From a virus, in IMG/VR virus record IMGVR_UViG_3300045988_182214: a DNA stretch of 64,000 nucleotides, one strand, 5' to 3'. The notes beneath the pieces were generated by a model. The model saw only the letters and a list, made by a program, of their open reading frames with translations, had not been told where the DNA came from and made no database searches. A program made the position numbers and the translations under genes. Of this stretch, positions 19,044 through 32,809 are shown in pieces. Each line of letters opens with the position of its first letter. Positions within the stretch are counted from its first letter, which is position 1.

Positions 19044-19304
19044 CAATTAATGTGTGATGTGTTTTGAGTAGTGTTGATCGATAATAAAGTTATGACTATA
19101 GCTGGTATTTTGAGCAATAAAATGAGGTGAATAAGACGCTCATCGATGGAATACATGCCATTGCCAGTGAAATATCTGAAGATGGGATTTCAGTCGATGT
19201 TTATTTGTATATGATGATATTGAAGTATTAAAAATGCTATTTTAAAACTCTAAGTTAATTTTTAAATTATAGTTTTAGAGTATATTTAAATGTAAGGAGT
19301 TTTT

Positions 19305-20032: not shown

Positions 20033-21082
20033 ATGAGAATAAACAAGATTAAGACTAATGTAACAGTATTAAACAAGGTAGACCGTAAGAATTACCAGAT
20101 AATTAATATTGATGGTTCAGGTGATTCCATTAAAGGAACTGCCAAGTTAATCAAGGAGGATGGTTCACTTGATGCTTCGGTTACTGCAGTAATTACAGCT
20201 AATAATGCAATAGCTTACAAGTTGATTGATGATCCTAATATTCCAGATGTTCCAACTGGATATACTGTAGAAAATGGAATTTTGCTTAAGAATGGAGTCC
20301 CTGCTACAGAACAGGGTTCACTTGTAATTAATAGTATTATTGCAGGTGTTGCAGGAAGACTTATTTTATCTGTTGAACCAAGAGAACCAAGAGAAGGTTA
20401 TTTCGATATTATGTCATATACAGTTGAGTCAGATAAGTTTAATAAGCTTATCAGAAGATCTATTCCAGAAGTTACAATCATTGCTTCTTCTGAGAATAAG
20501 ATGCAGTTATATATGACATATTCAAGAACTTATACTAAGGATAAGAAGCTTGAAGATGGAACTATTGAAACAGATAATATCTTTGATGCTGCAGCAATCA
20601 TGTTATATGATGTAATGTCTGATGCAGTTGTTGATCATGTTTCTTTTGCGGAGCCAATTAAGGCTGTAGATTCTGTTAAGGCACCTAATGAAACAATTTT
20701 CGCAATTGAAGCAGATACAGTAGTCGATTCTGACGGAATTATCAAGGAAGATGATTATATTACATTAAGATTTGTTGCTTCTGAAAGCCATTCATTAAGT
20801 CTTTATAAGACAACAGCAATTGACAGTGTTCCAGAATCAATTTCAAAGGGATATAACGCAAGTCTTATTAAAGCTTCTTCAGGCAAGTGGTATATTAATG
20901 ATATCACATATAAGATCCCAGATAAGATAGTTGCTGAGCTTGCAGGTTATAATGTAATTGTGGATATTACATCTAAGGATCATGTTACAAGAATTTCTCT
21001 TGCTAATACAAATACTATGGAGATAAAGACTCTTGTTATTTCTGAAACAAGAGATAGAGGAGACATTATAACCATAGAGTAA
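20033..21082 (+). CDS. hypothetical protein, tandem paralog A
   Basis: SD AAGGAGG; N- and C-termini are homologous to the ORF at 21215 (MRINKIKTNVTVLNKVD... / ...VTRISLAN...EIKTLVISETRDRGDIITIE). Confidence 0.6.
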   Translation: MRINKIKTNVTVLNKVDRKNYQIINIDGSGDSIKGTAKLIKEDGSLDASVTAVITANNAIAYKLIDDPNIPDVPTGYTVENGILLKNGVPATEQGSLVINSIIAGVAGRLILSVEPREPREGYFDIMSYTVESDKFNKLIRRSIPEVTIIASSENKMQLYMTYSRTYTKDKKLEDGTIETDNIFDAAAIMLYDVMSDAVVDHVSFAEPIKAVDSVKAPNETIFAIEADTVVDSDGIIKEDDYITLRFVASESHSLSLYKTTAIDSVPESISKGYNASLIKASSGKWYINDITYKIPDKIVAELAGYNVIVDITSKDHVTRISLANTNTMEIKTLVISETRDRGDIITIE

Positions 21083-21214: not shown

Positions 21215-22366
21215 ATGAGAGAAAACAAAATTTTAGAAAATGTAACAGTATTAAACAAGGTTGACAACAGACAGTATTTAATTACATCTGTTACCGATGG
21301 CGTAGGAACGGCTTGTCTTTTAGAAAATGGTGAAGTAAACGAAGATATATCTGTCATGATATCATCATCTAACGCAATTGCTTTTAGACTTATCAGCAAT
21401 CCTAATATTCCAGATATTCCAGATGGATATTCAGTAGAAGACGGAATTTTACTTAAGGATGGTGTTGCTGCTACACAGCAGGGTTCACTGGTAATTAAGA
21501 GTATCGTTACATCTGTTCCAGGTAAGCTTTTATTAGCTGTATTGCCTAGAGAAAACACAACAGAACATGATGATTATATTGATTTATTTGCTTATAAGCC
21601 GGATGAGGATAAGTTTAAGAAACTTATTCCAGTTTCAATTCCAATGCCGGAAGTTATAGGTGTATGTGACAAATATGTGATACTAAAGACTTCCTATACA
21701 CACTTTGAAACAAAGAAGGATTGTAATGGAAAAGATATTTTCGCTGAATATTTTGATAATGCTGAAATTATCGTTTATGATGGTGCAAAGAATTATATTT
21801 CAAGTTATTTAATGCTTGACGCACCAATAAATAATGTCATTACTGTAAGAAATTCAATGAATGTACCTACATGGGTCATTGAATATACAGAGCAGGTATG
21901 TAATAATAATTATTATAATCCTAATTGTGATTGTGGTTATGACTGCGAAAATGATTGTGGAGATTATGATGAATGCAATAATTGTGACTATCATTTAGAT
22001 ACAATTACTAATACTAAGGAATTAATCGAGATGGATCATATTAAAGCAGAAATGATTGCTCTTAATGGTGGTACATTAATGAGGCTCAATAGCATTAATA
22101 TCCCTTCACATATTAAATCTGTTTCAATTGGTTGGAATAGTGCTGATTTTATCAGACTTGAAGACAGAATTATGATTGGAGAGTATGTTGATAAAATCAT
22201 TACTGATTCAAAGATAATGTCTGCAGTTGAAGGATATGATTGGATTGTCGATACAAGTAAGGAAGATAATGTAACAAGAATTGCTCTTGCAAACGACAAT
22301 ATGGAAATCAAGTATATTGTTATTACTGAAACATCAGATAGAGGAGACGTTGTTAAGGTAAAATAA
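21215..22366 (+). CDS. hypothetical protein, tandem paralog B with Cys-rich insert
   Basis: Homologous ends with 20033..21082; insert CNNNYYNPNCDCGYDCENDCGDYDECNNCDYH. Confidence 0.6.
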   Translation: MRENKILENVTVLNKVDNRQYLITSVTDGVGTACLLENGEVNEDISVMISSSNAIAFRLISNPNIPDIPDGYSVEDGILLKDGVAATQQGSLVIKSIVTSVPGKLLLAVLPRENTTEHDDYIDLFAYKPDEDKFKKLIPVSIPMPEVIGVCDKYVILKTSYTHFETKKDCNGKDIFAEYFDNAEIIVYDGAKNYISSYLMLDAPINNVITVRNSMNVPTWVIEYTEQVCNNNYYNPNCDCGYDCENDCGDYDECNNCDYHLDTITNTKELIEMDHIKAEMIALNGGTLMRLNSINIPSHIKSVSIGWNSADFIRLEDRIMIGEYVDKIITDSKIMSAVEGYDWIVDTSKEDNVTRIALANDNMEIKYIVITETSDRGDVVKVK

Positions 22367-22477: not shown

Positions 22478-24271
22478 ATGTCAATGTTTGAACATGTAAA
22501 AATTGGAGAATTAACAAAAAAGGTTATTGAGTCAGGAGTTACAGTGTGTGAACATAACCATCCAGGAGGCTCTTTGTTTGATGCCGTAGATGAACCTAAA
22601 AGTTATTTAGATGCTGCATTTAATGCAGGATATACTAAATTTGCTGTTACGGACCATGCATCATTTTCAGCAATGCAAACATGTATTGATTACGCTAAGA
22701 AAATAAGTACTGAGGAACATCCATTTAATATCATTTATGGCGTAGAGGCTTATATTGAAGTGCCACCATTTAAGATAAATGAACAGATTGGCCATATGAT
22801 TATGTTAGCCACTTCAGAAAGAGGCAAGCATATTATTGATAAGTTAAATTCTAAGGCTTCTGAAAAAAGAATGGGAAAGCCTGTTATTACAATATCAGAT
22901 TTAAAGAAATATAACTTTAACGGTGATATAATAGCAACTTCAGCTTGCGTTTCGGGTGCACCAGCTCTGCAATTATTATCAGATGATGTTTTGGATAAAA
23001 TGATTAACAGAGAAAGAAAAGCACAGCAGCATACTACTGAAAAAGACGAGCTAGTTATACATGATTGTATAAGTCCTGATGATAAAGAATATCTTTCAGC
23101 TAAAGATGAATTTGAAAGGGTATCGGCAGATTTAGATGAATTGATTAATATTCGTGATTCCAAGGAACTTAAATCAGAAAGAACACAGATTTCAAGAAAA
23201 TTAAGAGATGCAAGAAAGTGTTTAAATGATGATGATCCAGAGCTTATTAAACTGATTAACGAATATGAGGAGATAAATAATAAAATTCTGGAAGCTAAAG
23301 ATAAAATTCCTAATGTCAGAAAATTAGTTAATGCTAAGAAAGCCGAGTTGAAGGATATAAGTCTTAAGGTAGAGGAATACATTAATCATGAAAATAAGAT
23401 ACAGCATTATGAATCATTAAAGAAAAGCCCAATAGAATTAATGTCTGAAGCAGAAAAGACAATGCTTTTTTATCAGGAAATTTTTGGAGCAGGTAATTAT
23501 TACATTGAAGTTCAGAATCATGGGCTTGAAATGGAAAGCAGAACATATCCTGTGTTAGCTCAGTTAGCAAGGAAGCATAATATTCCATTAGTTGCTGCTA
23601 ATGATGCACATATGGCAGATAATTCTGATAGAAGTATTGATATGCGTAATGTAGCTAAATTTTTAAGATTTATTAAGATAAGTGAGTCGGAATCAGATAA
23701 AGAGTTATATGTAAAGACACCTTATGAACTTGCTCAGGCCTTATCAGCTATATTAACAGATGATCAGGTTGCAGAAGCACTCAATAACTTAAATGTAATT
23801 GGAAAAAGATGTGCTTATATTCCAGAAAAATCTAATCATTATCCAGTATTTGATAAGAATAAGGATTCAAACGAATTATTAAGATCTGAAGCAATTAAGG
23901 GAATTAATTGGAGATATCCTAACGGAAAAGGATGGGATGAAGAACATCAGAAACGAATGGAATACGAACTTAATATTATCATTCAGATGGGCTTTGCCGA
24001 TTATCATTTAATTGTAAAGGACTTCCTGGAATATGGAAGAATTTGTGGATTAGTACCTATGGATAAACTATCAGAAGTACCTTTAACAATTGAAGGTGCA
24101 AAAGAGTATGTTAAGGCTCACAATTATAATACCGGAATTGGAATAGGCATTGGAAGAGGTTCAGGTGCCGGTTCATTGGTTACATATTTACTTGGTATTA
24201 CCGGAATTGATCCATTTAAGTATAATCTGATTTTTGAACGATTCTTAAATCCAGAAAGAGTAAGTATGCCT
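22478..24271 (+). CDS. dnaE: DNA polymerase III alpha subunit (DnaE-type), exon 1 (PHP domain to ERVSMP)
   Basis: PHP motifs [10 protein letters not shown] and AVTDHASFS; ...[40 protein letters not shown] aligns with E. coli DnaE up to the residue just before the catalytic PDFDVDF. The continuous ORF then runs into intron sequence and stops at 24319. Confidence 0.85.
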
Positions 24272-24696
24272 AAATATATTGGGCGTTCAGCGTGGACTCT
24301 AACTCAGAGGTGTGCTTAATATTTTATTATTAAGTGCTAACGGTAGAAGTTGAATAAGACTGCTATATAAAGTGTCACAACAGGATATATAGCTTAACCC
24401 ATAGACGAAGCAGCTTCGTAAGAGAACCTACGGTCCTAATATTTTTATATAAAAGATATTGAAGGATAGCAGGCGATACCGTGCTAAGATTATAAATAAT
24501 ATTATATAAATAAAAAATTGTTCGTATATAATATTATTTATTTTAAAGTGTAACGACTATCCTTTTTAAGGAGTACAACTGAGAATGGTTACAGTTGGAA
24601 GTGCGTTGAAATATAATATTAATAATATTATATTGAGATATAGTCTAATCCCACTTATACAAGTGTTAAAGTACTACGAAAGTAGGGGTATATTTG
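24272..24696 (+). ncRNA. putative group I self-splicing intron in dnaE (no ORF)
   Basis: Splitting at 24271/24697 restores ...ERVSMP|DIDSDLALG..., colinear with E. coli ...ERVSMPDFDVDF. The upstream exon ends in U and the intron ends in G; GAGATATAGTCT (S-element-like) pairs with an upstream AGACTG for a P7; the intron looks GC-richer and more structured than its surroundings. Confidence 0.6.
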
Positions 24697-25452
24697 GATA
24701 TCGATAGTGATCTTGCTCTTGGAGTAAGAGAAAAGACAATTGAGTATGTAAGAGCTAAATATGGTAGTGAAGCTGTTGTTGGAATTATTACAGAATCAAG
24801 ACAGCAGGCTAAAGGTGCTATCAGAGATGCTGCAAGATATTATGGAAAGAAAGCCTATGATGATGAAAAGAAATTCTTATCTTTAGGAGATCAGATTCGT
24901 AAGAAAGTGCCTGCTAAAGCAACTAATTTTGAAGATATTGTTGGCATGAAAGATACTAATAGGGTTGATGAATTAGGCATTAATATTCAGGACAGCGTTT
25001 CTTTGTTAGATTTTTTAAAGGATGAATATAATAGTAATCCAGATGCTATTTCTATTCTTAATATTGCAGCTCATTGCGAAGGTATGCTTACGACATACGG
25101 ACAACATGCCGCAGGTGTTATTATTTATGATAGTAATGATGTTACTGATTATATTCCTATTAGAGATGGAAAAAAGGGAATTAAAACTACAGAAATGGAC
25201 ATGATTCAGTGCGAAGCTAATGGATTATTAAAAATGGATTTTCTTGGATTAAAAACTCTTACAATTATTACTGACACACTCAGAATGATTCAGAGAGATA
25301 CAGGAGAAGTAATTGATGTAATGAATATTCCATTAGAGGGTCCTAAAGCTGATAAGGTATACAAAGAAGTATATGCAAAAGGAAGAACTAAGAATGTTTT
25401 CCAGTTTGAGTCAGCCGGTATGAGGAATAACCTTAAGAAGTTATGCTCATAG
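24697..25452 (+). CDS. dnaE: DNA polymerase III alpha subunit, exon 2 (palm/fingers, ends ...FQFESAGMRNNLKKLCS)
   Basis: DIDSD catalytic aspartates; GQHAAGVIIYD; LKMDFLGLKTLT; VFQFESAGM matches E. coli VFQLESRGM. The reading frame ends 4 codons after the point where the homologue continues. Confidence 0.85.
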   Translation, partial: DIDSDLALGVREKTIEYVRAKYGSEAVVGIITESRQQAKGAIRDAARYYGKKAYDDEKKFLSLGDQIRKKVPAKATNFEDIVGMKDTNRVDELGINIQDSVSLLDFLKDEYNSNPDAISILNIAAHCEGMLTTYGQHAAGVIIYDSNDVTDYIPIRDGKKGIKTTEMDMIQCEANGLLKMDFLGLKTLTIITDTLRMIQRDTGEVIDVMNIPLEGPKADKVYKEVYAKGRTKNVFQFESAGMRNNLKKLCS

Positions 25453-25505
25453 TGAATAGTTAATTGAATATTTTGTATTAAAACGCATGTCATTATGATG
25501 TGCGT

Positions 25506-25519
25506 TTTTTCTGTCATAT
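25506..25519 (+). promoter_or_regulatory. promoter-like motif TTTTCTGTCATAT
   Basis: 38 nt upstream of ATG 25557. Confidence 0.55.
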
Positions 25520-25556
25520 TTCTTTTAAATTATAATAAATAAAGGAGAACAATATT

Positions 25557-31037: not shown

Positions 31038-31047
31038 TATTCATGCA

Positions 31048-31073
31048 AGCGTCCAAAATTGGACGCTTTTTTT
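31048..31073 (+). terminator. rho-independent terminator
   Basis: AGCGTCC aaaatt GGACGCT followed by T7. Confidence 0.75.
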
Positions 31074-31074
31074 A

Positions 31075-31088
31075 ATTTTCTGTCATAA
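31075..31088 (+). promoter_or_regulatory. promoter-like motif TTTTCTGTCATAA
   Basis: 36 nt upstream of ATG 31124; drives the dnaE C-terminal cistron. Confidence 0.5.
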
Positions 31089-31123
31089 ATTATATAGTTA
31101 TGAATTGAAAGGAGAAATTTAAA

Positions 31124-32809
31124 ATGAATAAAACAGGTATTGAAGATTTAATAGCAATGAATGCTTTATATCGTCCTGGTCCTGAAAAGTTTATACCTGA
31201 TTTCATAGAAGGTAAAAAGGATGCATCTAAGATTAAATATTTATGTCCTCAATTAGAGCCAATTTTGTCAACTACTTATGGACAGATAGTTTATCAGGAA
31301 CAGGTAATGCAGATTGTTCGTGATTTAGCAGGATATACATGGGGGCGTTCTGATTTAGTCCGTAGAGCTATGTCAAAAAAACATCAGGATGAAATTGATG
31401 CTGAAAGACACACTTTTGTATATGGCAATGCTGATACTAAAAAAGAAAATGAAGCATTAGTACCAGGTTGTATTTCAAATGGAATACCAGAAGAAATTGC
31501 TCATAAAATCTGGGATGCGATGGTTGATTTTGCTAAGTATGCTTTTAATAAGTCACATGCCTCTGCTTATGCTGTTACATCATATTGGACTGCTTTTCTT
31601 AAGTATTATTATCCGGCTTATTATCTTACAAATGTAATAAATCATACTGATAAGATTGATGAAGTCGCTGATGATATTAGTGATGCTCTTGATTTTGGAG
31701 TAAAGGTATTGCCTCCGGACATTAATGCTTCAAATTTACATTGTGATGTTGTAGATGGAAATATTTTGTATGGTCTGAGTAATATTAAGAATGTTGGAGC
31801 AGAAGCAGCTAAAATTATTGAAGATAGAAATGTTAATGGAGAATATTCTGATATTAAGGATTTTATCAAACGAACAAATATTAATGCAGAAGCATTAAGT
31901 TCCTTAATTAAAGCAGGTGCTTTTGATTGCCTTGGTTATACAAGAACAATGATATCATTAGATATGATTTGTATGAAAGAAATTCAGGATACAATCAAGA
32001 AAATCAGAGAGAAGAGTAAGTTTATTGAAAACGCAAGTAAAGTTATTGAATTTGTGGAAGATTATATTGATCTTGATGAGTTTAAGGAAAAAATTTCAGA
32101 AGAAAATATTTCCTTTCAAGTTACTTCAAAAAAGATGCCAACTAAGGATTCCATAATTAAACGTATCAATTCAGCTAAGACAGTTATAGAAAGCTTAGAA
32201 GATGATCTTGAAAATATAGATATTGATTATGTAGAAGATGATTTAGGTCAGATTCTAAATGATGAAAAAGAAGTGTTAGGTGTTTATATTACAGGGCATC
32301 CAATTGATGAGTATAATATTTATACAGATCCCATTTCTGATATTTCAACAGAAGTTAATGATGTATCTGGTATAATTAAAAATCTTGTTATAAGAAAGGA
32401 CAGAAATGGATACGAATGGGTAACTTTTGAGGTAGAAGATAAAACAGGTTCTATTAATGGTGTATGTTTTTCTAAGGATTATGCAAATATTAGAGACTTA
32501 CTTGTTAATGATGCTAAATTATGTTTATCAGGGAAAATTCAAGTAGATGATTTTAGATCTTCAGATGACGAAACTGTATATCAGATTATTGTTAAATCTG
32601 TTAAACCTTTAAAGAAAAATAAGTCTTCATATAGATTTATTTGTACTGTTTCCGAAGTAAACGATGTTCTTGATTCTATTAATGAATATCTGGTGGACGT
32701 TGATGGAGATTATTTATATTGGCTTGATTCAACAACTGGAATTGAACATTTATGTAAGAAATTCATTAACCCTGATATGTCAGCCCCTTCAATAGTACGC
32801 AAATGCTAA
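31124..32809 (+). CDS. dnaE: DNA polymerase III alpha subunit, C-terminal cistron (fingers/thumb/HhH/OB)
   Basis: MNKTGIEDLIAMNALYRPGP...YGQIVYQEQVMQIVRDLAGYTWGRSDLVRRAMSKK...FNKSHASAYAVTSYWTAFLKYYYPAYY is colinear with E. coli DnaE from ...[15 protein letters not shown] onward; its own SD AAAGGAG and ATG. Confidence 0.9.
   Translation: MNKTGIEDLIAMNALYRPGPEKFIPDFIEGKKDASKIKYLCPQLEPILSTTYGQIVYQEQVMQIVRDLAGYTWGRSDLVRRAMSKKHQDEIDAERHTFVYGNADTKKENEALVPGCISNGIPEEIAHKIWDAMVDFAKYAFNKSHASAYAVTSYWTAFLKYYYPAYYLTNVINHTDKIDEVADDISDALDFGVKVLPPDINASNLHCDVVDGNILYGLSNIKNVGAEAAKIIEDRNVNGEYSDIKDFIKRTNINAEALSSLIKAGAFDCLGYTRTMISLDMICMKEIQDTIKKIREKSKFIENASKVIEFVEDYIDLDEFKEKISEENISFQVTSKKMPTKDSIIKRINSAKTVIESLEDDLENIDIDYVEDDLGQILNDEKEVLGVYITGHPIDEYNIYTDPISDISTEVNDVSGIIKNLVIRKDRNGYEWVTFEVEDKTGSINGVCFSKDYANIRDLLVNDAKLCLSGKIQVDDFRSSDDETVYQIIVKSVKPLKKNKSSYRFICTVSEVNDVLDSINEYLVDVDGDYLYWLDSTTGIEHLCKKFINPDMSAPSIVRKC

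Follow-up and report, generated by a model that had tools for sequence, protein, structure and literature searches.

Group I introns in phage genes for DNA polymerase, ribonucleotide reductase and terminase are classical (PMC3984707). Introns in the DNA polymerase genes of the Bacillus phages SPO1, SP82 and Bastille are described together with the nicking HNH endonucleases I-HmuI, I-HmuII and I-BasI (PMC3984707, PMC3428280). A full-text search of the literature for a phage dnaE gene with a group I intron found no paper describing one. Group IA2 introns of the Staphylococcus phages Twort and K/812 were reportedly characterized by Landthaler and Shub in 1999, and a crystal structure of the Twort ribozyme is said to have been published by Golden et al. 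in 2005. In phage IA introns, P7 follows P6, and the order downstream is P7.1-P7.2-P3'. Here, we describe an interruption of dnaE in phage DNA (24272..24696) that is very probably a self-splicing group I intron of the phage IA type. It separates, in phase 0, the Pro codon from the first Asp codon of the PDxDxD motif of the DNA polymerase III (Pol III) alpha subunit, as judged from the nucleotide and protein comparisons below. Since group I introns of the phage polymerase type are classical, the mechanism holds no surprise. The intron is a normal kind of phage mobile element, at an insertion site that is undescribed in the literature searched. With it, an intron that is widespread in gut and Bacillota phages is documented in a family C (DnaE) polymerase, exactly at the catalytic aspartates.

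The window, which is the whole stretch of 64,000 nt that was analysed, comes from virus record IMGVR_UViG_3300045988_182214 and is A+T-rich phage DNA (28.9% G+C); all features are given on its + strand. Exon 1 of dnaE (22478..24271, 598 codons) encodes the PHP domain and the palm up to ERVSMP, and exon 2 (24697..25452, 251 codons plus the stop) starts with DIDSD and encodes the remaining palm and the first third of the fingers. The Pfam matches are divided at the same point: PHP and DNA_pol3_alpha are found in exon 1, the latter ending at profile position 102 of 260 at residue 598, and DNA_pol3_alpha restarts at position 103 with residue 1 of exon 2, where it continues to position 260 and is followed by DNA_pol3_finger 1-59. 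The ORF listing agreed with the sequence-only reading in that the ORF 22478..24319 follows DnaE up to ERVSMP and then diverges, and that the following ORF (24694..25452) has no real start; in the former, 15 unrelated codons precede the stop. The TTG of the latter is the last three bases of the intron, and the ORF reads (M)DIDSDLALGVREKTIEYV, with the exon 2 protein beginning DIDSDLALGV... after the TTG. The proposed joining of 24271 to 24697 indeed gives ERVSMP|DIDSD, which is exact in the Pfam profile, and the joined peptide recreates the motif of Thermus aquaticus Pol III alpha in a gap-free match of 18 residues. The last base of the 5' exon is U24271 and the last base of the intron is G24696, also as proposed.

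The closest DnaE relatives were unannotated human faecal phage contigs, with up to 40% identity. Other relatives were located in prophage-like regions of Lachnospiraceae and other Clostridia, mostly at no more than 41% identity and at up to 55% over partial matches. The phage host is probably a gut member of Bacillota. Exon 1 contains an insertion of about 155 residues rich in Lys and Glu (residues about 177-331) in the N-terminal region of DnaE. When related phage DnaE genes are compared by tblastn, nothing corresponds to this insertion, their matches covering residues 26-176 and 332-598 only. Directly upstream of dnaE are two tandem paralogous ORFs, 20033-21082 (349 aa) and 21215-22366 (383 aa), with similar N-termini (MRINKIKTNVTVLNKVD.. 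and MRENKILENVTVLNKVD..) and similar C-termini.

A protein-guided scan of IMG/VR yielded two contigs that were 97-99% identical to the window. The contig L009 (IMGVR_UViG_3300029581_000240) is about 98% identical on both flanks and lacks exactly 24272..24696 (425 nt), since its blastn segments end at window position 24271 and resume at 24697. Its junction reads ...AGTATGCCT|GATATCGAT... (longer downstream stretch: GATATCGATAGCGAT). The intron boundaries are fixed by this natural intron-less allele, independent of any model. Excision at the exact boundaries leaves an uninterrupted conserved reading frame, and intron-less alleles exist, based on Pfam, blastn and the T. aquaticus alignment. The other contig, L008/L040 (IMGVR_UViG_3300045988_182851), carries the intron with a single base changed, at 24623 in the P8 loop, and a cassette of 515 nt (8037-8551 in L008), inserted after window position 24512/24513 in the loop L6. 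The cassette encodes a protein of 172 aa with the Pfam domains HNH_3 (5.9e-9) and NUMOD4. It supplies its own GGAGG ribosome-binding site (RBS), and the endonuclease frame closes in the 3' strand of P6a, with its last codons and stop in sequence that is retained in the window (AAAATTGTTCGTATATAA). The claim that no homing endonuclease ORF is present was therefore right for the window copy, in which the sole ORF of at least 30 aa in the ORF listing is one of 40 aa at 24585-24707 that extends into exon 2, but wrong for the sibling L008, which has an HNH gene in L6. The three near-identical genomes represent an empty site, an intron with an endonuclease gene and an intron alone, and this set of three alleles lends itself directly to work on the homing cycle and on how endonuclease genes are gained or lost. 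Position 24708 in exon 2 is T in the window (GATAGTGAT) and C in both sibling contigs, including the intron-less one, so it is a marker telling the spliced RNA of this allele from intron-less DNA.

To describe the secondary structure, we built alignment A1 from 14 distinct introns at the dnaE site, leaving out the P6 interior and including 8 nt of each flanking exon, and scored a hand-built helix model on it against shuffles (n=500) and slid controls. Standard pairs made up 96.0% of 1067 cells, compared with 73.5 +/- 0.8% in the shuffles (0/500 reached the observed value) and 35-46% in the slid controls. Compensatory changes on both sides were observed in 53 of the 78 pairs, and the covariation score was 0.607 versus 0.07-0.105 in the slid controls. 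RNAalifold, run without the model, returned P1, P3 (8 bp), P3.1, P3.2, P4, P5, the inner P5 helix, P5a-c, P6, P6a, P7.1, P7.2, P8 and P9.1; the pseudoknot strand P7 and P9.0 are not among its helices. The single-sequence fold of the intron had an MFE z-score of -3.8. The canonical group I order P3-P4-P5-P6-P7-P3'-P8-P7', with the P3/P7 pseudoknot, is present and has comparative support from the A1 pairing and RNAalifold.

In P1 (24266..24286), the exon end AUGCCU (24266-71) pairs with the internal guide GGGCGU (24281-86) around a loop at 24272-80, which places the wobble U24271.G24281 at the 5' splice site. The U.G, C-G and C-G pairs are invariant (14/14), and the next pair covaries with the exon (GC in 10, AU in 3 and CG in 1). 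At other insertion sites the guide tracks the exon as well (GGUCA with UGGCU; GCUCA with UGGGU). The strand AUAUU (24276..24280) is a weak candidate for the 5' strand of P10, which might pair with the start of exon 2 (GAUAU, 24697-24701) and has only 2-5 bp in relatives. P3 adjoins P1 with no P2 between them, and is formed by UCAGCGUG (24287..24294) and UGCGUUGA (24602..24609), both in the A1 model and as 8 bp in RNAalifold; it is 100% paired, with 5/6 core pairs compensatory, and the 'YGC' of GAAGYGC belongs to this 8-bp helix in RNAalifold. Two other candidates for P3 were rejected. AAGGAU (24460) with AUCCUU (24557) failed since AUCCUU...AAGGA is the local hairpin P7.1, which covaries in relatives, and GUGC/GUGC (a P3.2 strand with the conserved GAAGUGC) failed since the variants of phage G, EF1 and CB457 fit the local hairpin only. 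Downstream of the P3 5' strand are the hairpin P3.1, CUCU/AGAG (24297..24309; 3/4 pairs compensatory), and the hairpin P3.2, GUGCUUAAUA/UAUUAAGUGC (24312..24337), which lies directly 5' of J3/4 and has five basal pairs that are 100% paired, three of them compensatory, and 8 pairs in RNAalifold.

P4 pairs ACGGUA (24340..24345) with UACCGU (24477-24482); it is 100% paired, with 3/6 pairs compensatory. The expanded P5 domain (24346..24476) consists of P5 itself, GAAGUUG (24346-52) with CAGCUUC (24411-17), and of the inner P5 helix, GACU (24358-61) with AGAC (24403-06), the P5a/P5b hairpin (24362-24393) and the P5c hairpin (24434-24466); the domain is supported by both the A1 model and RNAalifold. 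P5a was scored in the majority register (81.5% paired); MAFFT shifts the window by one column there, and the window register was checked by eye. The invariant strings of the domain, GUUGAAUAAGAC and GACGAAG, are the most conserved sequence of the family. Two unpaired A1 columns in the internal loop around P5c, 176 and 216 (window 24430 and 24471), change together, with A and U in 8 sequences and C and A in 6; the two positions may form a pair, non-canonical or tertiary, or may just separate two clades. P6 (domain 24483..24549) pairs GCU (24483-85) with AGU (24547-49), and its pair 231/249 is CG in 5, GC in 5, UA in 3 and AU in 1. The A+U hairpin P6a (24489-24544) has compensatory changes in all 6 basal pairs, with two U.U mismatches at its base in the window copy, and its loop L6 is the site of the endonuclease gene in relatives.

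The 5' strand of P7, A[C]GACU (24553..24558), contains the bulged C24554 and belongs to the R element GUGUAACGACUA; it is invariant (14/14) and complementary to AGUCU (24642-46). The S-element-like GAGATATAGTCT was correctly recognized at 24635-24646, where J8/7 and the P7 3' strand read GAGAUAU-AGUCU, are invariant in relatives and match the RF00028 consensus AAGAUAUAGUCuaauc at a posterior probability of about 1. The two P7 strands and J8/7 (GAGAUAUAGUC) are correctly placed and invariant, so that P7 is assigned by sequence and position, and covariation cannot confirm it. The P7 partner suggested earlier, AGACUG (24357-62), had to be replaced: it is complementary to AGUCU in the window copy but is located inside the P5 extension, in the wrong topology, where the partner of U24361 is A24403, and these two positions covary in the 14-sequence alignment (UA in 10 sequences, CG in 4). 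Between P7 and P3' are the hairpins P7.1, UCCUU/AAGGA (24560..24572; 3/3 basal pairs compensatory, missing in three relatives), and P7.2, CAACUG/CAGUUG (24576..24597; 6/6 pairs compensatory, 98.8% paired). The P8 hairpin (24610..24634) consists of 11 bp of A+U only, with 5/5 basal pairs compensatory, and is matched by RF00028 as P8. The 3' domain (24650..24696) contains P9.0, CCC (24650-52) with GGG (24686-88), P9 (24653-64), P9.1, CUAC-GAAA-GUAG (24674-85), and the omega G at 24696; compensatory changes were found in 2/3 pairs of P9.0 and 4/4 of P9.1. The terminal G24696, the U at the 5' splice site and its G partner are all invariant in A1.

The refuting condition named in the sequence-only reading, that no group I covariance model matches, technically applies at the gathering score of RF00028 (50 bits), at which there was no match. 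A focused search of 651 nt gave a sub-threshold score of 23.6 bits (E 8.5e-4), in a partial match covering P8, J8/7 and P9. Rfam scans of the whole window, at gathering and at E <= 0.1, returned nothing for the intron. RF00028 matches were also lacking in the controls, namely the annotated recA intron of phage 812, the Twort stretch that matches the 3' domain of the intron (L081) and five dnaE relatives. Because the same model misses these, its miss here is uninformative on the intron and says more about the model. Rfam and GISSD models may fail on phage variants, and the phage introns called 'IA2' are heterogeneous, according to a 2025 survey (PMC11878797). The present locus is another case of the Rfam model missing genuine phage introns, with the consequence that deposited genomes list DnaE as two genes.

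Comparisons by blastn with deposited phages showed pieces of the intron at the ..P|D[IV]D[IV]D boundary in five phages, and homologous introns occupy this site in six deposited phage genomes. The five phages are Staphylococcus phage SPbeta-like (KT429160), with the intron between 'dnaE_2' and 'dnaE_1'; Bacillus phage G (JN638751), with the DnaE-like gp329 and the homing endonuclease gp330; Enterococcus phage EF1/EF5 (MF001358), in which two 'DNA polymerase III alpha' ORFs flank an 'HNH homing endonuclease # Phage intron' in the depositor's note for EF1; Mammaliicoccus phage phi116; and Clostridium phage CS266P1. These isolate-phage introns are known from annotation only and are unpublished. 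The invariant P5-extension pattern, GTTGAATAAGAC N30-55 GACGAAG, was used as a search motif in IMG/VR and found 71 loci on viral contigs, and at least 33 loci (21 distinct sequences) carry the intron at the PD|DxD site of dnaE. The P6 loops are as short as 0-8 nt in some dnaE-site loci and exceed 500 nt, with an ORF, in others. Enterocloster phages, along with other contigs, carry the family at a second position in dnaE, ..FG[YLI]|..FN..HS.., which we take to be that of the cyanobacterial split DnaE intein. The second-site loci are L004 (2440-2900), L007, L015, L026, L033 and L059, and some second-site copies have a large insertion in P8, not P6. The intron family was absent from the 80 DnaE loci of Clostridia genomes that were searched. 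In the window, a one-mismatch motif at 19126 was considered as a second family copy and rejected as a chance match, as all other intron elements are missing there.

The intron-less allele, the same-site homologues, the covariation and the sub-threshold RF00028 match together uphold the original proposal of a group I intron at the catalytic PDxDxD of dnaE, with the splice sites originally given. Counted against it are the RF00028 score below gathering, the invariant P7, the U.U mismatches of P6a and the departure from textbook IA2. The same mismatches, and the missing endonuclease gene, would fit a splicing-dead group I relic, with dnaE then broken or working as fragments. We consider this improbable, given that a single loop nucleotide outside the cassette differs from the endonuclease-bearing copy, that all core helices and family-invariant bases are intact, and that the reading frames of the two exons and of the C-terminal gene farther downstream are open and conserved, with 99% protein identity among the three genomes.

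A fission of the gene without splicing, by which proteins of 613 aa and 252 aa would be translated separately and associate, is very unlikely. The TTG at 24694, with GGGG a few bases upstream, could in principle start exon 2 separately, and farther downstream this dnaE is certainly divided, as two independent genes, at 25452/31124. However, the break at the intron separates P from D within the catalytic loop, the GGGG takes part in the pairing of P9.0, the intron-less alleles are continuous, and what lies between the halves is a ribozyme fold that is conserved, unlike the terminator/promoter/RBS unit at the real fission. For another element (an intein, a group II intron or an IS/MITE) or an assembly artefact, nothing speaks beyond the interruption itself, and the probability is negligible. 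The exon frame reaches a stop 15 codons into the insert, so that it cannot be an intein; there is no match to group II introns or other Rfam families at E <= 0.1 and no ORF of a group II intron; and independent assemblies as well as the genomes of isolated phages show the same structure.

Two-step splicing initiated by guanosine is the established chemistry of group I introns. We infer that this group I intron would splice, and would do so without the help of proteins, because its core is intact and conserved and a functional polymerase is needed. The pre-mRNA would fold into the P3-P8 and P4-P6 domains, and pairing of the guide with the exon end would create P1, placing U24271.G24281 at the splice site. 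In the first step, a free guanosine held in P7 would attack after U24271, G24696 would then occupy the G site, and the 5' exon would attack after G24696. The predicted product is one mRNA with a CCU|GAU junction, in the window allele ...AGTATGCCT|GATATCGATAGTGAT, which would encode an 849-residue N-terminal polypeptide of DnaE with an intact active site. The intron family appears to be mobile and to be colonising the PD|DxD site of dnaE in many Bacillota phages, with mobility normally provided by a homing endonuclease gene in L6, of the HNH type in the sibling. As it lacks this gene, the window copy would be a passive passenger that is inherited vertically and is not autonomously mobile; its mobilisation would depend on recombination or on an endonuclease acting in trans during co-infection.

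Apart from the intron, dnaE is divided into two genes (regions 25440-25520 and 31040-32809). The N-terminal one ends at 25452 (..FQFESAGMRNNLKKLCS*; finger 1-59) before a terminator-like hairpin, and the C-terminal gene (31124..32809; fingers 63-162, HhH and OB by Pfam) has its own RBS and start and is not joined by the intron. Between the halves are 5.7 kb with about ten ORFs, including an RlaP-type nucleotidyltransferase, a 5'-3' exonuclease and DUF3232, and the gap 25452/31124 shows neither an intein signature nor an intron signature. The stop and the terminator after exon 2 are also found in L009. In the more distant relatives L011, L014, L020 and L057, both dnaE parts form one continuous frame. 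That the intron-bearing gene is, in addition, divided between two cistrons bears on the fragmentation tolerated by a replicative polymerase.

Comparison with the known classes shows the mark of subgroup IA, that is, the extra pairings P7.1 and P7.2 between P7 and P3', both covarying. In IA2 introns of the Twort/td type, P2 lies between P1 and P3 and the P3 5' strand comes right before J3/4. Here there is no P2 and two covarying hairpins (24297-24337) separate P3 from J3/4, so the intron is filed as IA-like and not strictly IA2. Of the two hairpins, P3.1 is known as an optional pairing (PMC3873408). Homing introns are marked by an endonuclease gene in a peripheral loop, which is found in the sibling L008 and not in the window copy. 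It is conceivable, though somewhat doubtful, that the family is a structurally distinct, unclassified IA-type lineage specialised on DnaE-type polymerase genes at two or more conserved sites; the traits that point to this are P3 abutting P1 without P2, the two hairpins before J3/4, the large P5 extension and the invariant GUUGAAUAAGAC...GACGAAG. If so, this polymerase would be made from three coding segments by two mechanisms, splicing and non-covalent assembly with a separate C-terminal half.

The dnaE introns of the isolate phages EF1/EF5, G, SPbeta-like, phi116 and CS266P1 share with the window intron the insertion point and a homologous ribozyme with all helices alignable, and their endonuclease gene, when present, is in L6. 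Their host gene has 24-29% protein identity to that of the window, where the locus spans the whole gene. Most of them carry an HNH/I-HmuI-like or other endonuclease gene, whereas the window copy carries none, and the window intron has a longer P5c and a longer P8 of A+U only. The 3' 55-65 nt of the intron are 80-88% identical to introns of Twort/K-like staphylococcal phages, and this holds for J8/7-P7-P9.0-P9-P9.1 in the group IA2 introns of Twort and K/812, whose host genes are terminase, recA, polA, nrdE and lysin, in contrast to dnaE in the window. The Twort intron has the same R element and P7.1/P7.2 arrangement and has P2 between P1 and P3, whereas in the window intron P3 abuts P1 and is followed by two hairpins, and the P5 domain is much larger. 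The td intron of phage T4 likewise has the R/S core sequences, P7.1/P7.2 and the ORF site in P6 in common with the window intron, and differs in its P2, small P5, GIY-YIG endonuclease and host gene, thymidylate synthase. SPO1, SP82 and Bastille share with the window a group I intron in a replicative DNA polymerase gene in a phage of Gram-positive bacteria, and the HNH and NUMOD4 endonuclease of the sibling L008 resembles theirs in type. Their polymerases are of family A (PolA-like), whereas that of the window is of family C (DnaE) and is cut at the catalytic aspartates.
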